Below, in pieces: positions 9,395 to 35,652 of a DNA stretch of 64,000 nt. A program made the position numbers and the translations under genes. Within the stretch, counting starts at the first letter, position 1. Every line of letters begins with the position of its first letter. The DNA lies in the sequence record NC_041937.1, one strand, 5' to 3'. Under the pieces are notes generated by a model. The model made no database searches. It was given only the letters and a program-made list of their open reading frames with translations, and was not told the origin of the DNA. This DNA comes from Escherichia phage V18.

Positions 9395-9981
9395 TCGGAA
9401 TTGATGTAGATCTGACACTGGTAGATTCAGGAACAGCATGGTGGGAGTGGTTGGAGCGTTTGTATGGTCCAGCCAGTAAGACAGTAGCTAAACCTTCTAA
9501 TGGGCTAATGTATTACGATCTGTCAAAGTATTGGCCTGATCGTCCCAAAGAAAACATCATAGGACCTTTTGATTTCTGGAGTGATCCGTTCCTCTACGAC
9601 TTCCTTAAGCCTGAAGAGGGGGCTATTGAGGTTATGAAAGATTTGGTGGCTCGTGGTCACAAGCTTGCATTTATCTCGGTATGCAAGAAAGGTCACCTTG
9701 CATCTAAATCAAGGTTCTTAAAGCGTTGGACCAGTGATTTTATGGATCTGGACGACCACACCCAGGGCCACGGCTTCTACGCCACACATTTCAAAGGGAA
9801 TGTGGCTGTAGATGTTATAATTGACGACAGGCATGAATACCTGAACCAATTCGCTTCACGACCTGAAGTTATTAAAATCCTAAAAGATACGCCTTATGAG
9901 CAATTCGAGGAGTTAAAGGTCAGTGTTGACTATACCGCTAATAGCTGGTATAAAATAGGAAAATTTTTAGAAGGTATTTGA
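9388..9981 (+). CDS. HAD-superfamily phosphatase, possibly 5'(3')-deoxyribonucleotidase
   Basis: 197 aa; N-terminal IGIDVDLTLV (DxDxT motif I). Confidence 0.45.
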   Translation: MLIGIDVDLTLVDSGTAWWEWLERLYGPASKTVAKPSNGLMYYDLSKYWPDRPKENIIGPFDFWSDPFLYDFLKPEEGAIEVMKDLVARGHKLAFISVCKKGHLASKSRFLKRWTSDFMDLDDHTQGHGFYATHFKGNVAVDVIIDDRHEYLNQFASRPEVIKILKDTPYEQFEELKVSVDYTANSWYKIGKFLEGI

Positions 9982-30575: not shown

Positions 30576-30881
30576 ATGGCTAAATCTAAAGTTGAACTGT
30601 TCACCTCTCTTCCTTCTGACACTGCAGAACGTGATCGCCTTCGCAAAACAATCGAAGAACTGGTGGAACTCCAGCTTCAGATTAAAGACCTGAAAGATGC
30701 CATCAAGGATATCATTCTCGTTGAGAAGCAGGATCATCTATATTCTCCTAAATTCATCAAATCTCTGGTGGCTACAGAGTTTGATATCCGCTACGAAGCT
30801 GAAAAACGTCGCGCTAAGATTGAAGAAGAGGTTGAGCACATGTCTGAGGCAGACATTCTGTTCAAACGCTCTGTAGAATAA
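30576..30881 (+). CDS. hypothetical coiled-coil protein
   Basis: 101 aa; RBS AAGGAGA; followed by strong terminator. Confidence 0.45.
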   Translation: MAKSKVELFTSLPSDTAERDRLRKTIEELVELQLQIKDLKDAIKDIILVEKQDHLYSPKFIKSLVATEFDIRYEAEKRRAKIEEEVEHMSEADILFKRSVE

Positions 30882-31271: not shown

Positions 31272-31655
31272 ATGTCTACAAAGGCGGCTAAATACTCTTA
31301 CATGCCATCAACCTCTGCAGAGGTAGACTTTAGTTTCGATGTGTTTCCACTGTTTGAGGTGGTTCTGGCATACCCAACAATACTATCTACTCCTGAATCA
31401 CTTGTGCCTGTTAAGTTGCAGAACGCTATGCATTCTATGCACTACAACAATAAATGTAGGCACAGATGGTGTCAAGACGAGGAAAAAGATTTGGATAGTT
31501 TGAGGGATTTTGACAGTCACCTTTTGACACCTTTCAGCTACTCCAACCTTGATAAGCCTCATGGGTATAGCAAAATATCAAATTTAAGACACCTAGGACG
31601 CTCTGTGGCGTCCTTTTCTTTATCTGGTGCACGATTGCATACCTTGGACAGATAA
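31272..31655 (+). CDS. hypothetical protein
   Basis: RBS GAGGTGG before ATG 31272. Confidence 0.4.
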   Translation: MSTKAAKYSYMPSTSAEVDFSFDVFPLFEVVLAYPTILSTPESLVPVKLQNAMHSMHYNNKCRHRWCQDEEKDLDSLRDFDSHLLTPFSYSNLDKPHGYSKISNLRHLGRSVASFSLSGARLHTLDR

Positions 31656-31928
31656 TCCCGTTACAGAGCGTTTAAGAGCTTCCTACAAACAAATCTCTCT
31701 TTCGAGCGTAGCGAGAACGCACGTCCGTTTTGACCCAAATCACCATACGCTCGGATTTTAACCAAACCCTCGCGGCGTTTCTGTTGACACATTACCGCTA
31801 CCGTGATAGTATCCACACAGTTTGGAGAATATGGAATACACAATGAGAACATTGTCTGAAGTTTTAGTGGTGATCCTGATGATCATTACGTCTATAGCGG
31901 CTGTTGCCGGAATACTCACGGGTGGAAC

Positions 31929-32129
31929 ATGATCAACACACATGCATCTGAAGGAGTGACGACATGTAGCCTGGATGAGCCAGTTAAAGAGGAAAACTTA
32001 GATTCTGATGACTCTTCATCTTCGTCCCAGACAGATCCTGAGGCTGATGACCTAACGTGGGAAGACATCGTAGACATCTGGTTCTCTATTATGCCTGAGC
32101 ACGAAGAGTTCAGAGGTGGTAGACTATGA
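31929..32129 (+). CDS. hypothetical acidic serine-rich protein
   Basis: 66 aa ORF. Confidence 0.3.
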   Translation: MINTHASEGVTTCSLDEPVKEENLDSDDSSSSSQTDPEADDLTWEDIVDIWFSIMPEHEEFRGGRL

Positions 32130-32250
32130 AGCACCGAGCCCACACAGATTCCTCATGCTAAAGCATGGCCTGAAGAGGCAAACGTGCATAATTCCAGCGT
32201 ATTGGAACGTATAAAACCCTGTTCACACTCTCATTTCCAGAGGAGATTTC

Positions 32251-32466
32251 ATGAAGATAGAAATATTTGGTGGAGCTGACAACACTCGTGGCCTGATTTA
32301 CCTTGAATTTGATGAATCATACCTGCCAGAGGTGTTAAATATAGACTCTGTTGCTGAGGCTTTGGGAGTAAACCCTAAAGAACTCCACTCTTGTGCTGAG
32401 ATCGATGGTTGGGAAGAGACCATGAACATTGATTTCAGTGAAGTGGAGGATGAACCGCTAGACTGA
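32251..32466 (+). CDS. hypothetical acidic protein
   Basis: 71 aa; RBS AGAGGAG; MKIEIFGG start; last plus-arm gene. Confidence 0.4.
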   Translation: MKIEIFGGADNTRGLIYLEFDESYLPEVLNIDSVAEALGVNPKELHSCAEIDGWEETMNIDFSEVEDEPLD

Positions 32467-32593
32467 CGCACAATTAGCTGCCCGGCTAAAGTGCTGGAAG
32501 CACCTATAACACATCTTTCAACTAAATTTCCTACCACCACAATCACTTACCTCCCGCACATGACTGTTTGCTTGTTTAGTGAGCAGTCATGCC

Positions 32594-32621
32594 TTGACAT
32601 TCTTGCCTATCCTGATAAAAT
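32594..32621 (+). promoter_or_regulatory. sigma70-like promoter (TTGACA-16-TAAAAT) firing into ORF-free DNA
   Basis: -35 at 32594-32599, -10 at 32616-32621; no credible ORF downstream. Confidence 0.5.
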
Positions 32622-33160
32622 TAAGTTCTTCTCTTTTCTTTTACCGAGTAATTCGGGTTTTCTGTTCTCTTCGGTTTGAAGGGGTATGGAGATACACCTG
32701 AGTGAACAGGGTGAACAACCGAACCATTAGCTATGGCATTAGCATGGCGAAGCGGACGGGTGACGAAAGAGGGGCCGGAGGACACCAGTCACTGCCATAT
32801 GATATATGGGTGATAACCTGAAGAGTCTGAATAAGTGTTTAAGTACCAGTCAGAGGAAAAGGTGAATGGTAGCCGAAGGGGGGAGGGGGGTTTCTTGTAT
32901 CTTTAATTTGTATATTATGTATACACTTGTAAACCAATCTAATCTGAATCTGTTTACCACACAAAGCGGATAGAGACAAATATTGCCTATTAAACTTGAA
33001 TTATTTATAGAAAATACCACAACACCCCTTAAGTCTTTGATTTACACACAAATCCTACAGATATTCAACCTCCATATTTAACATACTTGTAACATATTCC
33101 ATACTCTACCTGTCTGATCAATTTCCCAACTACATTCTCATATTTTCCCTGTCTGTACTA

Positions 33161-33356
33161 CCCCTGCCCCGCCGGGAGTCCCGTCATATCTGGCTTTCCA
33201 GCAAATATCACACCCACAAATATCATTGCCTGAAGAGGGTTTCATCCCATAATACCTGCCTTACCTGAAGAGCGCTTCATACACCACGTAAATTTTTTAA
33301 TTGACCTCCCCCTGCCCCTCCGGAGAGGTTGGCTTTTCCCACACAGACCTGAAGAG
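33161..33356. repeat. cluster of short direct repeats
   Basis: cccctgcccc-g/t-ccgg-g-ag at 33161 and 33308; cctgaagag at 33229, 33264, 33348. Confidence 0.5.
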
Positions 33357-33976
33357 TCAGCCAGAAATATCTGAATAGGCCCGATCTGCCCAGTCAGGAG
33401 CCAGTAGCGACTGGAGTGCTGCCAGGCGGACGGAATGGGAATACTTCTCATTCTTATAACAATTCTCAAATATCGAGGCAGTGAGAGAAATTAATAGGCC
33501 AGGCCGTTCACACAGTGGCACAACATTTGCAACCTATCCTGTGGGGATGAATGAGAATACCTATCATTGTGAGAACTATTATCATTACGGGCAATTTAAC
33601 ATAATACCCATTATGCGCACCACTGGCGATACATACAGGGATTGATACCATGAGTTACAGTTTACACACATAACAATTATATTTCTTACTATTTGTGTGG
33701 GATATAGTTAGCAGCCAATAGATTAGATATTGACCTGTAGACTTCCAACCGTCTGGACGTCTAAACGCCCACACACCAAGGGTTATACATACATCGCTGA
33801 ATGTAAACAGGGCCGCAAAAATGCTACCATACCAGTTTGTAAATTTTTCATGCAGCACTTGACAAAGAGGAGAAAAACTTGTCTGACACAATGTCACACA
33901 ATATGACACTTTACACTGGACACACTAGGCACAAAAAAAAAAAACTGCAGTGACTAGGTCACCCCTTCAGGTGTTT

Positions 33977-34171
33977 CTATGACATAATATAAAAGCAGGG
34001 CAACTATTACAAATCTAAAGTTGCCTTGCTTGTTATGTCATGATTAACTAAATACAAGGCAACTATGATCTGATTAATAGTTTGCAGACAAACTATCACG
34101 GGGGTGATGGTTACTGCTTTTATATTATGTCGCGACTCCGTCGCGCCATGCCATTCGTTTGCATAGTTGCC
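33977..34171. repeat. palindrome-flanked iteron cluster
   Basis: 19-bp inverted arms at 33980-33998 and 34114-34132; GGCAACTAT copies at 33999, 34048, 34087 (variant) and inverted at 34017, 34163. Confidence 0.55.
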
Positions 34172-34824
34172 TTATTGTTACAGATAAAATAATTGTATTG
34201 TTAATTATTTCTTATCTTTCTATTAGTCATCTAATGATTCCAGTTAGTATAGTAACGTATAGTAAACATTAGACGACTAAATATTTCTCTGTTTATGATA
34301 ACTCACCGTAATAATTTCGGACTGTTTACGAAAAATGTTGACACCCTGGCTGATTTATGTTATGCAATTTAAACGAATAATTATTTTATGCAGGTATTGA
34401 CTATTCCGTTATTCTATGGTTGGAATAAATACTTAGCAGGCTATAGAATGGTGAGCGTACGTAAATTCTGAGATCTGTCGGCTATAGTTATACCCGATTT
34501 TTCACGTAGAACACGCTTTCGATGCTGTGTAAGTGTATGACTTATAAAGATTTTTAGTTGTTGACAAGATATTGGAGATGTGCATCAGGTTAAAATTTGT
34601 GCAATAGCGGCATTACGTGCACTTTTGGGAGAGAAAACGGGTAAAAATGGACTTGCTACCACACAATGAAAAATTATGCAATAGCTATTTTACATGTATG
34701 TTTGTACAGTGCGGGCAATTGATGGCTCGTCAATTATTCCACTTGCCAGGTAGGGCCGTTTATGGTAGGGGGAAGAGCAGACAAAAAGAAAGGGGCCTAA
34801 GCCCTTGATAATTCAGTTAAAAAA

Positions 34825-35244
34825 TTATAATGATTCGTATATTTCAAAAATCCGATTTGCCAGGTCGTTACGGTAGCGGAATTTTTCCTCACGTTTGATC
34901 ATCAGATCTTTAAAGCCATATTCTTTAAGCACTTCATTAACTTTATGGCGGCACACCTTCATATTATCTTGAGCGTCACCAATAAACTTGTTGCTGTGGT
35001 GCATTGCTTTAATTTCTTCTTCCAGGACCAGGGCAACTACCCGGACCGGATCAAGCTGGTAGGCGGTAACATCGATGCGGCATTGTAGACGGCTTTTAAC
35101 GTCTGCCACCGGATATACTGCAACCTCTTCCCCGTCAACATTGACAATAACTAGTTTACCATCGATCTCGAATCCTTTCGCCGCCGGACCGTGACAAAAA
35201 GCGTTATCAAAGCTATATGCCGGATTATTAGATTTAATGTTCAT
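34825..35244 (-). CDS. hypothetical protein (last gene of minus arm)
   Basis: 139 aa; RBS AGAGGTAAA upstream. Confidence 0.4.
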   Translation of the reverse strand: MNIKSNNPAYSFDNAFCHGPAAKGFEIDGKLVIVNVDGEEVAVYPVADVKSRLQCRIDVTAYQLDPVRVVALVLEEEIKAMHHSNKFIGDAQDNMKVCRHKVNEVLKEYGFKDLMIKREEKFRYRNDLANRIFEIYESL

Positions 35245-35388
35245 GGTGTTTTTACCTCTTAGTTAATTTTCTTACAACTTCCCTTCAAAAAAGAATATAG
35301 CAAAACTGCCGATCCCTGTCAACCAAGGATGGCATAATTTTTATGTGATCAAGGGGCTTTATTGCCCCTGACCATGTAACTTGTTGTA

Positions 35389-35652
35389 TTATTTGTTATT
35401 CATCCAGTTTTCCCAAGCTGCCTGATAATCTGCCTCACTGCGGCGGATCTCTTCTTGCTCTTCAAGCCGGATCTCTTCTTCCAGGTACCCCAAGATATCG
35501 GCTTTTTTGGTCTGGCGTAACATCCAATCATCTTTTTTACGGGTAAAGATCTTATATGCTTTCTCGCAAACCTCTTTTTTGCTACCTTTTTGGACTTTAA
35601 GAACTTTGTAGGCCATGTACTGAACTAGTTTGAGCTGATCAAGACGTTTCAT
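35389..35652 (-). CDS. hypothetical protein
   Basis: 87 aa; RBS AAAGAGGTAAA; GC hairpin in leader. Confidence 0.4.
   Translation of the reverse strand: MKRLDQLKLVQYMAYKVLKVQKGSKKEVCEKAYKIFTRKKDDWMLRQTKKADILGYLEEEIRLEEQEEIRRSEADYQAAWENWMNNK

Follow-up and report, generated by a model that had tools for sequence, protein, structure and literature searches.

Several described phage systems resemble parts of the region treated here, a gene-free gap of 2,358 bases (positions 32467-34824) in a 64,000-nucleotide stretch of DNA from Escherichia phage V18 (NC_041937.1; the whole stretch is called the window below). T7 and T3 have an exact direct terminal repeat flanked by arrays of short repeats, with the promoter phiOR near the right end. 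Phages also carry stable or large non-coding RNAs whose role is unknown, such as T4 RNAs C and D, GOLLD and ROOL. Closest to the V18 gap are its own relatives. Fig. 2 of the rV5 genome paper shows a grey “non-coding” box at the equivalent locus (PMC3606486), the published account of Gotham describes a genome with defined ends, and 458-bp terminal redundancies were reported for HdK5 and EdH4 by an independent laboratory, that of Korf et al. (PMC6563267). The rV5 box and the Gotham, HdK5 and EdH4 repeats occupy the same locus as the V18 gap, at 90-97% identity and between converging gene arms, and these papers give no function, promoter or RNA for the non-coding box.

It is probable that 32467-34824 constitutes the terminal region of an exact-ended linear genome and in addition carries a promoter-driven gene for a trans-acting RNA of approximately 265 nt. 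Judged from sequence comparison, this RNA appears to represent a new family of phage non-coding RNAs, found only in rV5-like phages and in a sister lineage that is uncultured. Terminal ends are already known for the genus, and the RNA gene appears to be the new part.

As in T7 and T3, a short exact terminal repeat is flanked on either side by repeated short motifs, and a promoter close to the right end is aimed at it. There is, however, no sequence similarity, the promoter is of the host type and not of the phage-polymerase type, V18 is a 137-kb myovirus, and T7 has no conserved structured RNA at the corresponding place. The pRNA of phi29 is likewise structured, of a similar size class, located beside a genome end and paired between its 5′ and 3′ ends, but the V18 RNA has no Rfam match, phi29 is a protein-primed podovirus without such terminal repeats, and a role in the packaging motor is unsupported here. 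Similar to T4 RNAs C and D, GOLLD and ROOL, the V18 RNA is phage-encoded, strongly conserved and structured; it differs from them in having no similarity to any Rfam model and in not lying beside tRNA genes.

A predicted RNA gene in the gene-free gap

The gap matches 120 phage records at 90-99% identity, nearly all of them from rV5-like coliphages of the genus Vequintavirus. According to the list of open reading frames (ORFs), it is bordered by the stop of a plus-strand ORF at 32466 and that of a minus-strand ORF at 34825. A preliminary description of the V18 sequence had recognized no credible ORF between these stops, and this assessment holds, as the longest ORF inside the gap is 84 aa and 12 candidate ORFs lack coding behavior. 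Across 15 Vequintavirus genomes, the variable sites of these candidates are spread evenly over the three codon positions (e.g., 21, 22 and 15, or 19, 18 and 26), compared with 7, 3 and 28 and 8, 6 and 54 in two flanking control genes. The candidates are mostly interrupted in relatives, a PHROG scan of nine of the 12 matched no family, and indels between the two lineages discussed below are not multiples of three. Most public records leave the gap blank, and some contain scattered “hypothetical proteins” that vary by record. It is therefore extremely improbable that the gap encodes one or more small proteins, even though ORFs of 54-84 aa exist and are annotated in some records. The ORF-free convergence region is real; it was already known from the rV5 paper and hence is not new.

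The preliminary description also pointed to a promoter (TTGACA at 32594, followed by TAAAAT) firing into this DNA, whose first part was said to be purine-rich and to end at a G-tract. The promoter scores 11/12 plus an extended -10 element, and both lineages have retained its hexamers. The spacer between them has diverged in L006/L022 (+2 nt), and the rV5-type genome of greatest divergence likewise has intact hexamers around a changed spacer longer by 2 nt. Positions 32670-32893 are 65% purine, which places them in the top 0.15% of same-size windows, and G6-A-G6 at 32878-32890 and A12 at 33933-33944 lie as claimed. Among isolates, the first G-run of the former tract comprises 5, 6 or 7 G and the second 5 or 6, for which slippage or homopolymer sequencing error are possible explanations.

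Conservation delimits the RNA gene. In the 15 Vequintavirus genomes, 32551-32900 is the most conserved part of the neighborhood, with a nucleotide diversity of 0.003-0.036 as compared to 0.02-0.06 for the neighboring gene and 0.27 for the minus-arm gene. Conservation drops sharply right after the G-tract and TTT, reaching a diversity of 0.22 at 32901-32950, and past this point three genomes (L010, L013 and L014) contain unrelated sequence. A high level of the RNA early in infection is probable, given its near-consensus host promoter and a conservation exceeding that of the neighboring proteins. No similarity to the RNA region was found in 5,426 E. coli genomes, which leaves a host origin unsupported. 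The records of rV5, Gotham, BASEL phages and others leave 32594-32893 unannotated, an ARAGORN scan for tRNA and tmRNA genes gave nothing (there are no tRNAs in the window), and no description of the RNA was found in a literature search partly limited by over-general terms.

Directly upstream of the promoter lies a hairpin that possibly shields the RNA gene against transcription from upstream or stabilizes the upstream mRNA. In the sister lineage, a 10-bp hairpin of unrelated sequence takes its place (L007 reverse strand, ~9880-9910), and neither hairpin has a U-run.

The sister lineage was recognized in an IMG/VR contig (L007) that shares a flanking gene and contains a 64%-identical copy of the RNA unit with the same start and end. 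The promoter of this lineage reads TTGCAA-17-TGcTATAAT, and the L007 copy has a matching 5′ pyrimidine tract and the end GGGGG-UA-GGGGG. Pattern scans identified the second-lineage RNA in nine metagenomic or IMG/VR contigs along with more rV5-type copies, and none of the cultured phages of the collection has an RNA of the second type. The two-lineage model R2 found no match in ~112 kb of the 146-kb genome of PVP-SE1, including its gene-free gap, or in loci from KB57, FENT2 and L008. Forty matches in unrelated taxa from a pattern scan of bacterial genomes were read as chance, as were nine metagenome pattern matches that lacked a covariance-model match.

The evidence for a structured RNA is comparative and comes from a covariance model (R1) that was built from six full-length second-lineage sequences only. 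R1 finds every rV5-type copy at full length, with 45-56 bits and E values of 1e-13 to 1e-16 in complete genomes, and on V18 it matches 32625-32893 on the plus strand over its full length (45.5 bits, E = 4e-13). Every genome has a single copy, in all cases on the strand of the promoter, and unrelated loci gave no match. Of all structure cells, 91.1% form standard pairs versus 47-55% in controls in which the partner columns were slid by 1-3; both sides have changed in 25 pairs versus 3-8 in the slid controls, and the covariation score is 0.206 versus 0.05-0.09. None of 500 shuffles reached the observed values. The R1 matches, the pairing and the double-change pairs support the earlier suggestion that the stretch from promoter to G-tract encodes a structured non-coding RNA.

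P7 is the best-supported hairpin, with four compensatory pairs between the lineages and two more within the second lineage. In helices 4 and 5, pairing is no higher than 82-84%. The strand is fixed by the many G-U pairs of P1 and P3. The minimum-energy pairings of the rV5 type (RNA positions 17-22/87-92 and 28-35/73-80) were not kept in the sister lineage in a hand comparison and were dropped in favor of hairpin P2. None of the 4227 models of Rfam 15, which include pRNA, GOLLD, ROOL, 6S, tmRNA and CsrB, matched within 31500-35500 at E <= 1, and the sister-lineage copy gave a chance-level match only (E 2.3). The Rfam search suggested in the preliminary description thus assigned no family.

Table 1. 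Predicted and observed features of the gap region in phage V18 (window positions).
Feature	Position	Strand	Description
Hairpin directly 5′ of the -35 hexamer	32559-32591	+	14 bp, -19 kcal/mol; different-sequence hairpin at the same place in the sister lineage
Sigma-70 promoter	32594-32621	+	TTGACA 32594-32599, 16-nt spacer, TG-n-TAAAAT 32613-32621 (extended -10)
Structured non-coding RNA gene (predicted), ~265 nt	32625-32893	+	Predicted 5′ end +/-3 nt; 3′ limit is the end of conservation
P1 closing helix	32625-32639 with 32877-32892	+	Pyrimidine tract with G-tract; 98.7% paired, 6 covarying pairs
P2 small hairpin		+	CCGA/UCGG against CCAGAA/UUCUGG; 3 compensatory pairs (hand comparison)
P3 pyrimidine-purine hairpin		+	94.2% paired, 4 covarying pairs
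Block CUGAGUGAACAG(G/C)GUGAACA(A/U)CCGAA	32698-32723	+	Invariant in both lineages except the two bracketed positions; pairing unsupported in rV5 type
P7 (helix 9)	32826-32830 with 32850-32854	+	99.2% paired, 8 covarying pairs
Invariant GUUUAAGUACCAG	32837-32849	+	Displayed in the P7 loop
G6-A-G6 tract	32878-32890	+	3′ strand of the closing helix; G5-6 UA G5 in the sister lineage
C-rich, G-poor, poorly conserved tract	32894-33330	+	C/G = 2.3; proposed Rho entry/termination zone
Between-lineage conserved island 1	33147-33245	+	76%; C-box CCCCTGCCCCGCCGGGAG and one CCTGAAGAG copy; similar C-box in PVP-SE1
CCTGAAGAG cluster	33229-33356	+	Three copies, starting at 33229, 33264 and 33348; <=200 bp before the repeat
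Second C-box	33308-33325	+	
Direct terminal repeat (physical genome ends)	33425-33883	none	Assigned by homology to mapped termini of relatives
Hypervariable short-repeat/indel zone	33884-34150	none	Just inside the left repeat; A12 33933-33944; 18-bp perfect inverted repeat 33981-33998/34114-34131
AT-rich block	34181-34460	none	30% GC, moderate conservation
Between-lineage conserved island 2	34479-34587	none	73% kept; TTGACA hexamer without matching -10
Intrinsic terminator-like hairpin closing the minus arm	34790-34806	-	Terminator annotated near the equivalent spot, just 3′ of the last minus-arm gene, in Murica, Gotham and HdK5

Genome ends and the motifs around them

The suggestion that the gap carries the genome ends agrees well with the records of relatives. 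The two ends of the Gotham record (1-459 and 136567-137025) are identical and form its annotated 459-bp terminal repeat, which aligns to 33425-33883 of V18 at 92-94%. Likewise, the first base of the HdK5 record is the equivalent of 33425 and its last that of 33883. Records starting at the equivalent of 33425 also include bov10K2, bov22_2 and Gotham, and those ending at the equivalent of 33883 include YN3, ECP2309, Gotham and EcoIv14a_Aya; in total, at least seven independent records break at one of the two positions. Conservation returns ~22 bp before 33425 and persists to ~12 bp beyond 33883. The assignment of 33425-33883 as the direct terminal repeat of V18, of ~459 bp, is thus supported by its homology to the relatives.

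By the same homology, 32467-33424 precedes the right copy of the repeat in virion DNA and 33884-34824 follows the left copy. As virion DNA would then start at 33425 and end at 33883, both of the converging gene arms run outward to the physical ends. The right boundary of the repeat (33861-33883) sits within CACTTGACAAAGAGGAGAAAAACTTGTC, which PVP-SE1 has conserved and in which a perfect TTGACA lacks a matching -10. This boundary sequence is a candidate cutting or recognition site.

Direct repeats, as mentioned in the preliminary description, and inverted repeats are also present in the gap. The 9-mer CCTGAAGAG occurs eight times in the window versus 0.52 expected. Three of the eight copies are in genes, where all encode Pro-Glu-Glu codons, and these were rejected as sites. 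The five non-coding copies, which share the plus strand and fall within 1.2 kb, comprise the cluster in front of the repeat (Table 1) and single copies at 32169 and 32817. The clustering is also seen in the second lineage (L007). A 26-27-nt hairpin with CCTGAAGAG (columns 189-214 of the RNA alignment A2) is present in two sister-lineage RNAs (L023 and L026) and cleanly missing from four (L025, L027, L028 and L038), which puts the motif outside the RNA core; the hairpin resembles a small insertable module.

The Salmonella phage PVP-SE1 (Seunavirus) has an equivalent gene-free convergent gap of 2.2 kb (L089 20553-22793; record 116552-118792). It contains four copies of CCTGAAG(A/T)G, a similar C-rich box followed by CCGGAG, and a sequence, CACTTGACAGGGAGGGAAAATTGT, that is 74% similar to the right repeat boundary. 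Since PVP-SE1 keeps the motifs and the boundary without a detectable RNA, motifs and boundaries seem to predate the RNA gene, and they make better candidates for end-cutting or packaging signals than the RNA gene does. By analogy with the role of the concatemer junction in T7 (PMC3276506), the CCTGAAGAG cluster, the C-boxes and the short-repeat zone after the repeat would most likely be recognition sites for packaging or end cutting. Arrays of repeats beside the terminal repeat of T7 offer a further parallel.

Just inward of the left repeat, most relatives have arrays of ACTGTT(C/T)AC in the same orientation, with up to seven strict copies per 200 bp (e.g., L009 ~2965-3165) over a background of 0.27 per kb. 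At 33903-33975, where diversity reaches the maximum of the region (0.32-0.46), V18 is without ~180 bp of the short-repeat array common in relatives, and the A12 run is located at the scar. This run accordingly falls in the hypervariable indel zone, outside any conserved element.

Possible action of the RNA and competing explanations

The following course of events is proposed. Host RNA polymerase would transcribe the RNA early in infection from the host-type promoter. Pairing of the 5′ pyrimidine tract with the 3′ G-tract closes the molecule, and compensatory changes preserve no fewer than three other helices. Polymerases reading through would enter the C-rich tract downstream and be released by Rho before reaching the repeat, and exonuclease trimming back to the closing helix would set the 3′ end. 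The RNA may then act in trans through its two invariant blocks on a protein or nucleic-acid partner.

The 3′ part of this scheme is drawn from the sequence following the RNA. On the RNA side, conservation stops at the G-tract and UU(U/A), after which the C-rich tract begins. Over the ~400 nt past the G-tract, the C/G ratio is 2.3-2.7, the highest of the whole window (top 0.04%), and in the sister lineage it is 2.14 over the first 265 nt after the RNA. The lack of a canonical intrinsic terminator combined with this Rho-site-like composition suggests Rho-dependent release and trimming.

Comparisons with possible partners gave chance-level matches only. Against E. coli 16S, 23S and 5S rRNA and tRNA-Glu, the invariant blocks show no more complementarity than expected by chance, and complements of at least 10 nt between the RNA and the phage's own transcripts are about as numerous as expected. 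An 11-nt perfect complement of an invariant block occurs at 32216-32226, in the 5′ leader of the last plus-arm gene (32251), whose ribosome-binding site follows after ~10 nt. The sister lineage has a 9-nt complement at another place, 35 nt upstream of the RNA promoter, and this complement tracks a G-to-C difference in the RNA. The counts are at chance level, and neither complement was taken as evidence of a target. The idea of a CsrA sponge was likewise discarded, as GGA counts are about as base composition predicts (hand count).

There is a small chance that the RNA serves the biology of the genome ends, e.g., as a cofactor in packaging or in the recognition or protection of ends. Its gene invariably lies just inward of the right end, and an unusual helix of pyrimidine tract and G-tract closes the molecule, both of which would fit such a role. 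The near-invariant block at 32698-32723 contains two copies of GUGAACA, reported as the exact complement of the left-end ACTGTT(C/T)AC repeats. This match could mean pairing, mimicry, shared protein sites or coincidence. We know of no RNA-assisted terminus function in tailed phages with terminal repeats, among which such a role would, if true, be novel.

Several points weigh against a terminal region with a trans-acting RNA gene. The RNA was not detected in PVP-SE1, which belongs to the next genus, and thus does not occur throughout the subfamily. A canonical intrinsic terminator is absent after the G-tract, and Rho termination and trimming are deduced from base composition. The folding energy of the single sequence is unexceptional (z = -1.14, and -0.44 for the opposite strand), so structure prediction, also suggested in the preliminary description, supports a fold through comparative pairing and not through energy. 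Helices 4, 5 and 8 are weak in the rV5 type. A single deep split, that between the two lineages, provides most of the covariation, and since the model itself fitted the alignment, its cells are not independent. As to the ends, two announcements of related phages report “circularly permuted” genomes or headful packaging (PhageTerm), and the termini of V18 are deduced from relatives rather than from its own reads.

The main rival is an RNA-primed replication origin, in which the G-rich 3′ end of a structured primer would form an R-loop with the C-rich template beside easily melted AT-rich DNA. This arrangement would resemble ColE1 RNA II, the T4 oriF/oriG transcripts and the mitochondrial light-strand-promoter transcript at CSB II, with which the locus shares a promoter-driven non-coding transcript leading to a G-rich tract, of the same GmAGn form as CSB II. 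A strong promoter does point into gene-free DNA, the transcript would end at G6AG6 followed by ~75% AT sequence, the cumulative GC skew turns at the locus, and compensatory changes would likewise be expected in a folded primer RNA. Phage-type polymerases are stalled by GmAGn tracts (PMC5027508). In the V18 RNA, however, the G-tract is held by the 5′ end in the conserved P1 helix and is below the length for efficient termination. Common human variants of CSB II have 12-15 G, and in assays with POLRMT, tracts from G6AG2 to G6AG6 showed basal termination only and tracts of 8-11 G none, compared with 10-13 G here (PMC5027508). A G-quadruplex stop of the CSB II type was rejected, as the tract (G5-7 A G5-6, or G5-6 UA G5) is too short and is paired in the RNA. 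The downstream DNA is unconserved: 32901-33000, with a diversity of 0.18-0.22, ranks among the most variable parts, has been exchanged for other sequence in three genomes and holds no conserved unwinding element, and the distance from RNA to repeat varies 2.5-fold between the lineages. The skew turn coincides with the switch in transcription direction, to which the rV5 authors attributed the turn near their non-coding box (PMC3606486). As to an origin of the iteron type, GCAACTAT-like repeats and an AT block exist, the latter in line with the preliminary description, but the repeat zone is hypervariable, differs in copy number and is largely deleted in V18, and no cognate initiator was identified. 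With the G-tract paired, the downstream DNA unconserved and G6AG6 giving only basal termination, a transcript-primed origin is weakened and seems unlikely.

Less likely still than such an origin are the small proteins dealt with above and two explanations in which the RNA product has no role. Transcription through the concatemer junction might mark or open the terminase site in cis, similar to T7, where RNA polymerase paused at the junction recruits gp18/gp19 (PMC3276506). The promoter aims at the repeat from ~800 bp with no gene between, and motif clusters occur on both sides of the repeat, yet near-invariance over 265 nt and compensatory helix changes would be left unexplained. Moreover, the C-rich tract is expected to halt host polymerase before the repeat, and PVP-SE1 keeps the motifs and the boundary-like sequence with the RNA undetected, and we thus regard packaging in cis as quite improbable. 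A site acting at the DNA level, such as a binding site for terminase or initiator or a single-strand initiation signal, is very improbable. The block lies near the genome end and contains one CCTGAAGAG copy and two GTGAACA, the inverse of the repeats across the terminal repeat; this CCTGAAGAG copy, however, is missing from four of the six sister-lineage RNAs. A run of 265 contiguous near-invariant bases far exceeds the needs of a protein site, the compensatory, G-U-dependent helices fail in duplex DNA or on the opposite strand, and a conserved promoter is located exactly at the start of the block.

Neighboring genes and significance

A plus-strand promoter-like element, TTGACA-17-TATGCA, is found at 34339-34367, pointing inward from the left end and antisense to the minus arm. 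Two units in the PVP-SE1 gap resemble it (TTGACA ... TTATGCTCAAAA). The last minus-arm gene (34825-35244, 139 aa) has a diversity far above that of the adjoining non-coding DNA. It is missing from Gotham, FV3 and APCEc02, and a protein 91-93% identical to its product adjoins unrelated DNA in an IMG/VR contig (L008).

A 101-aa gene at 30576-30881 is 100% conserved in most Vequintavirus genomes and is named “transcriptional regulator” in some records. Homologues with 42-59% identity occur in Seunavirus, Mydovirus, Certrevirus and Aeromonas phages at another genomic position. The gene was discarded as an anchor for locating the locus in other genera, as it is placed elsewhere in PVP-SE1, KB57 and FENT2. 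Furthermore, 19 “Campylobacter phage” records (MG0656xx, UNVERIFIED, host C. jejuni) share 90-97% identity with rV5-like coliphages across the region and look like mislabeled or contaminating coliphage genomes.

Phages of the rV5 type are common in cocktails for therapy and biocontrol and are part of the BASEL reference collection, and the gap is blank or filled with spurious ORFs in more than 100 of their public records. Assigning the termini provides a rational start coordinate and a check on annotation, and the motifs common to V18 and PVP-SE1 offer candidate cis-sites for the end-cutting mechanism of the subfamily. The ~265-nt RNA would be a previously unannotated gene, more conserved than the neighboring proteins, and its role, be it in host takeover, defense evasion, replication or packaging, is directly testable in a tractable E. 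coli system.

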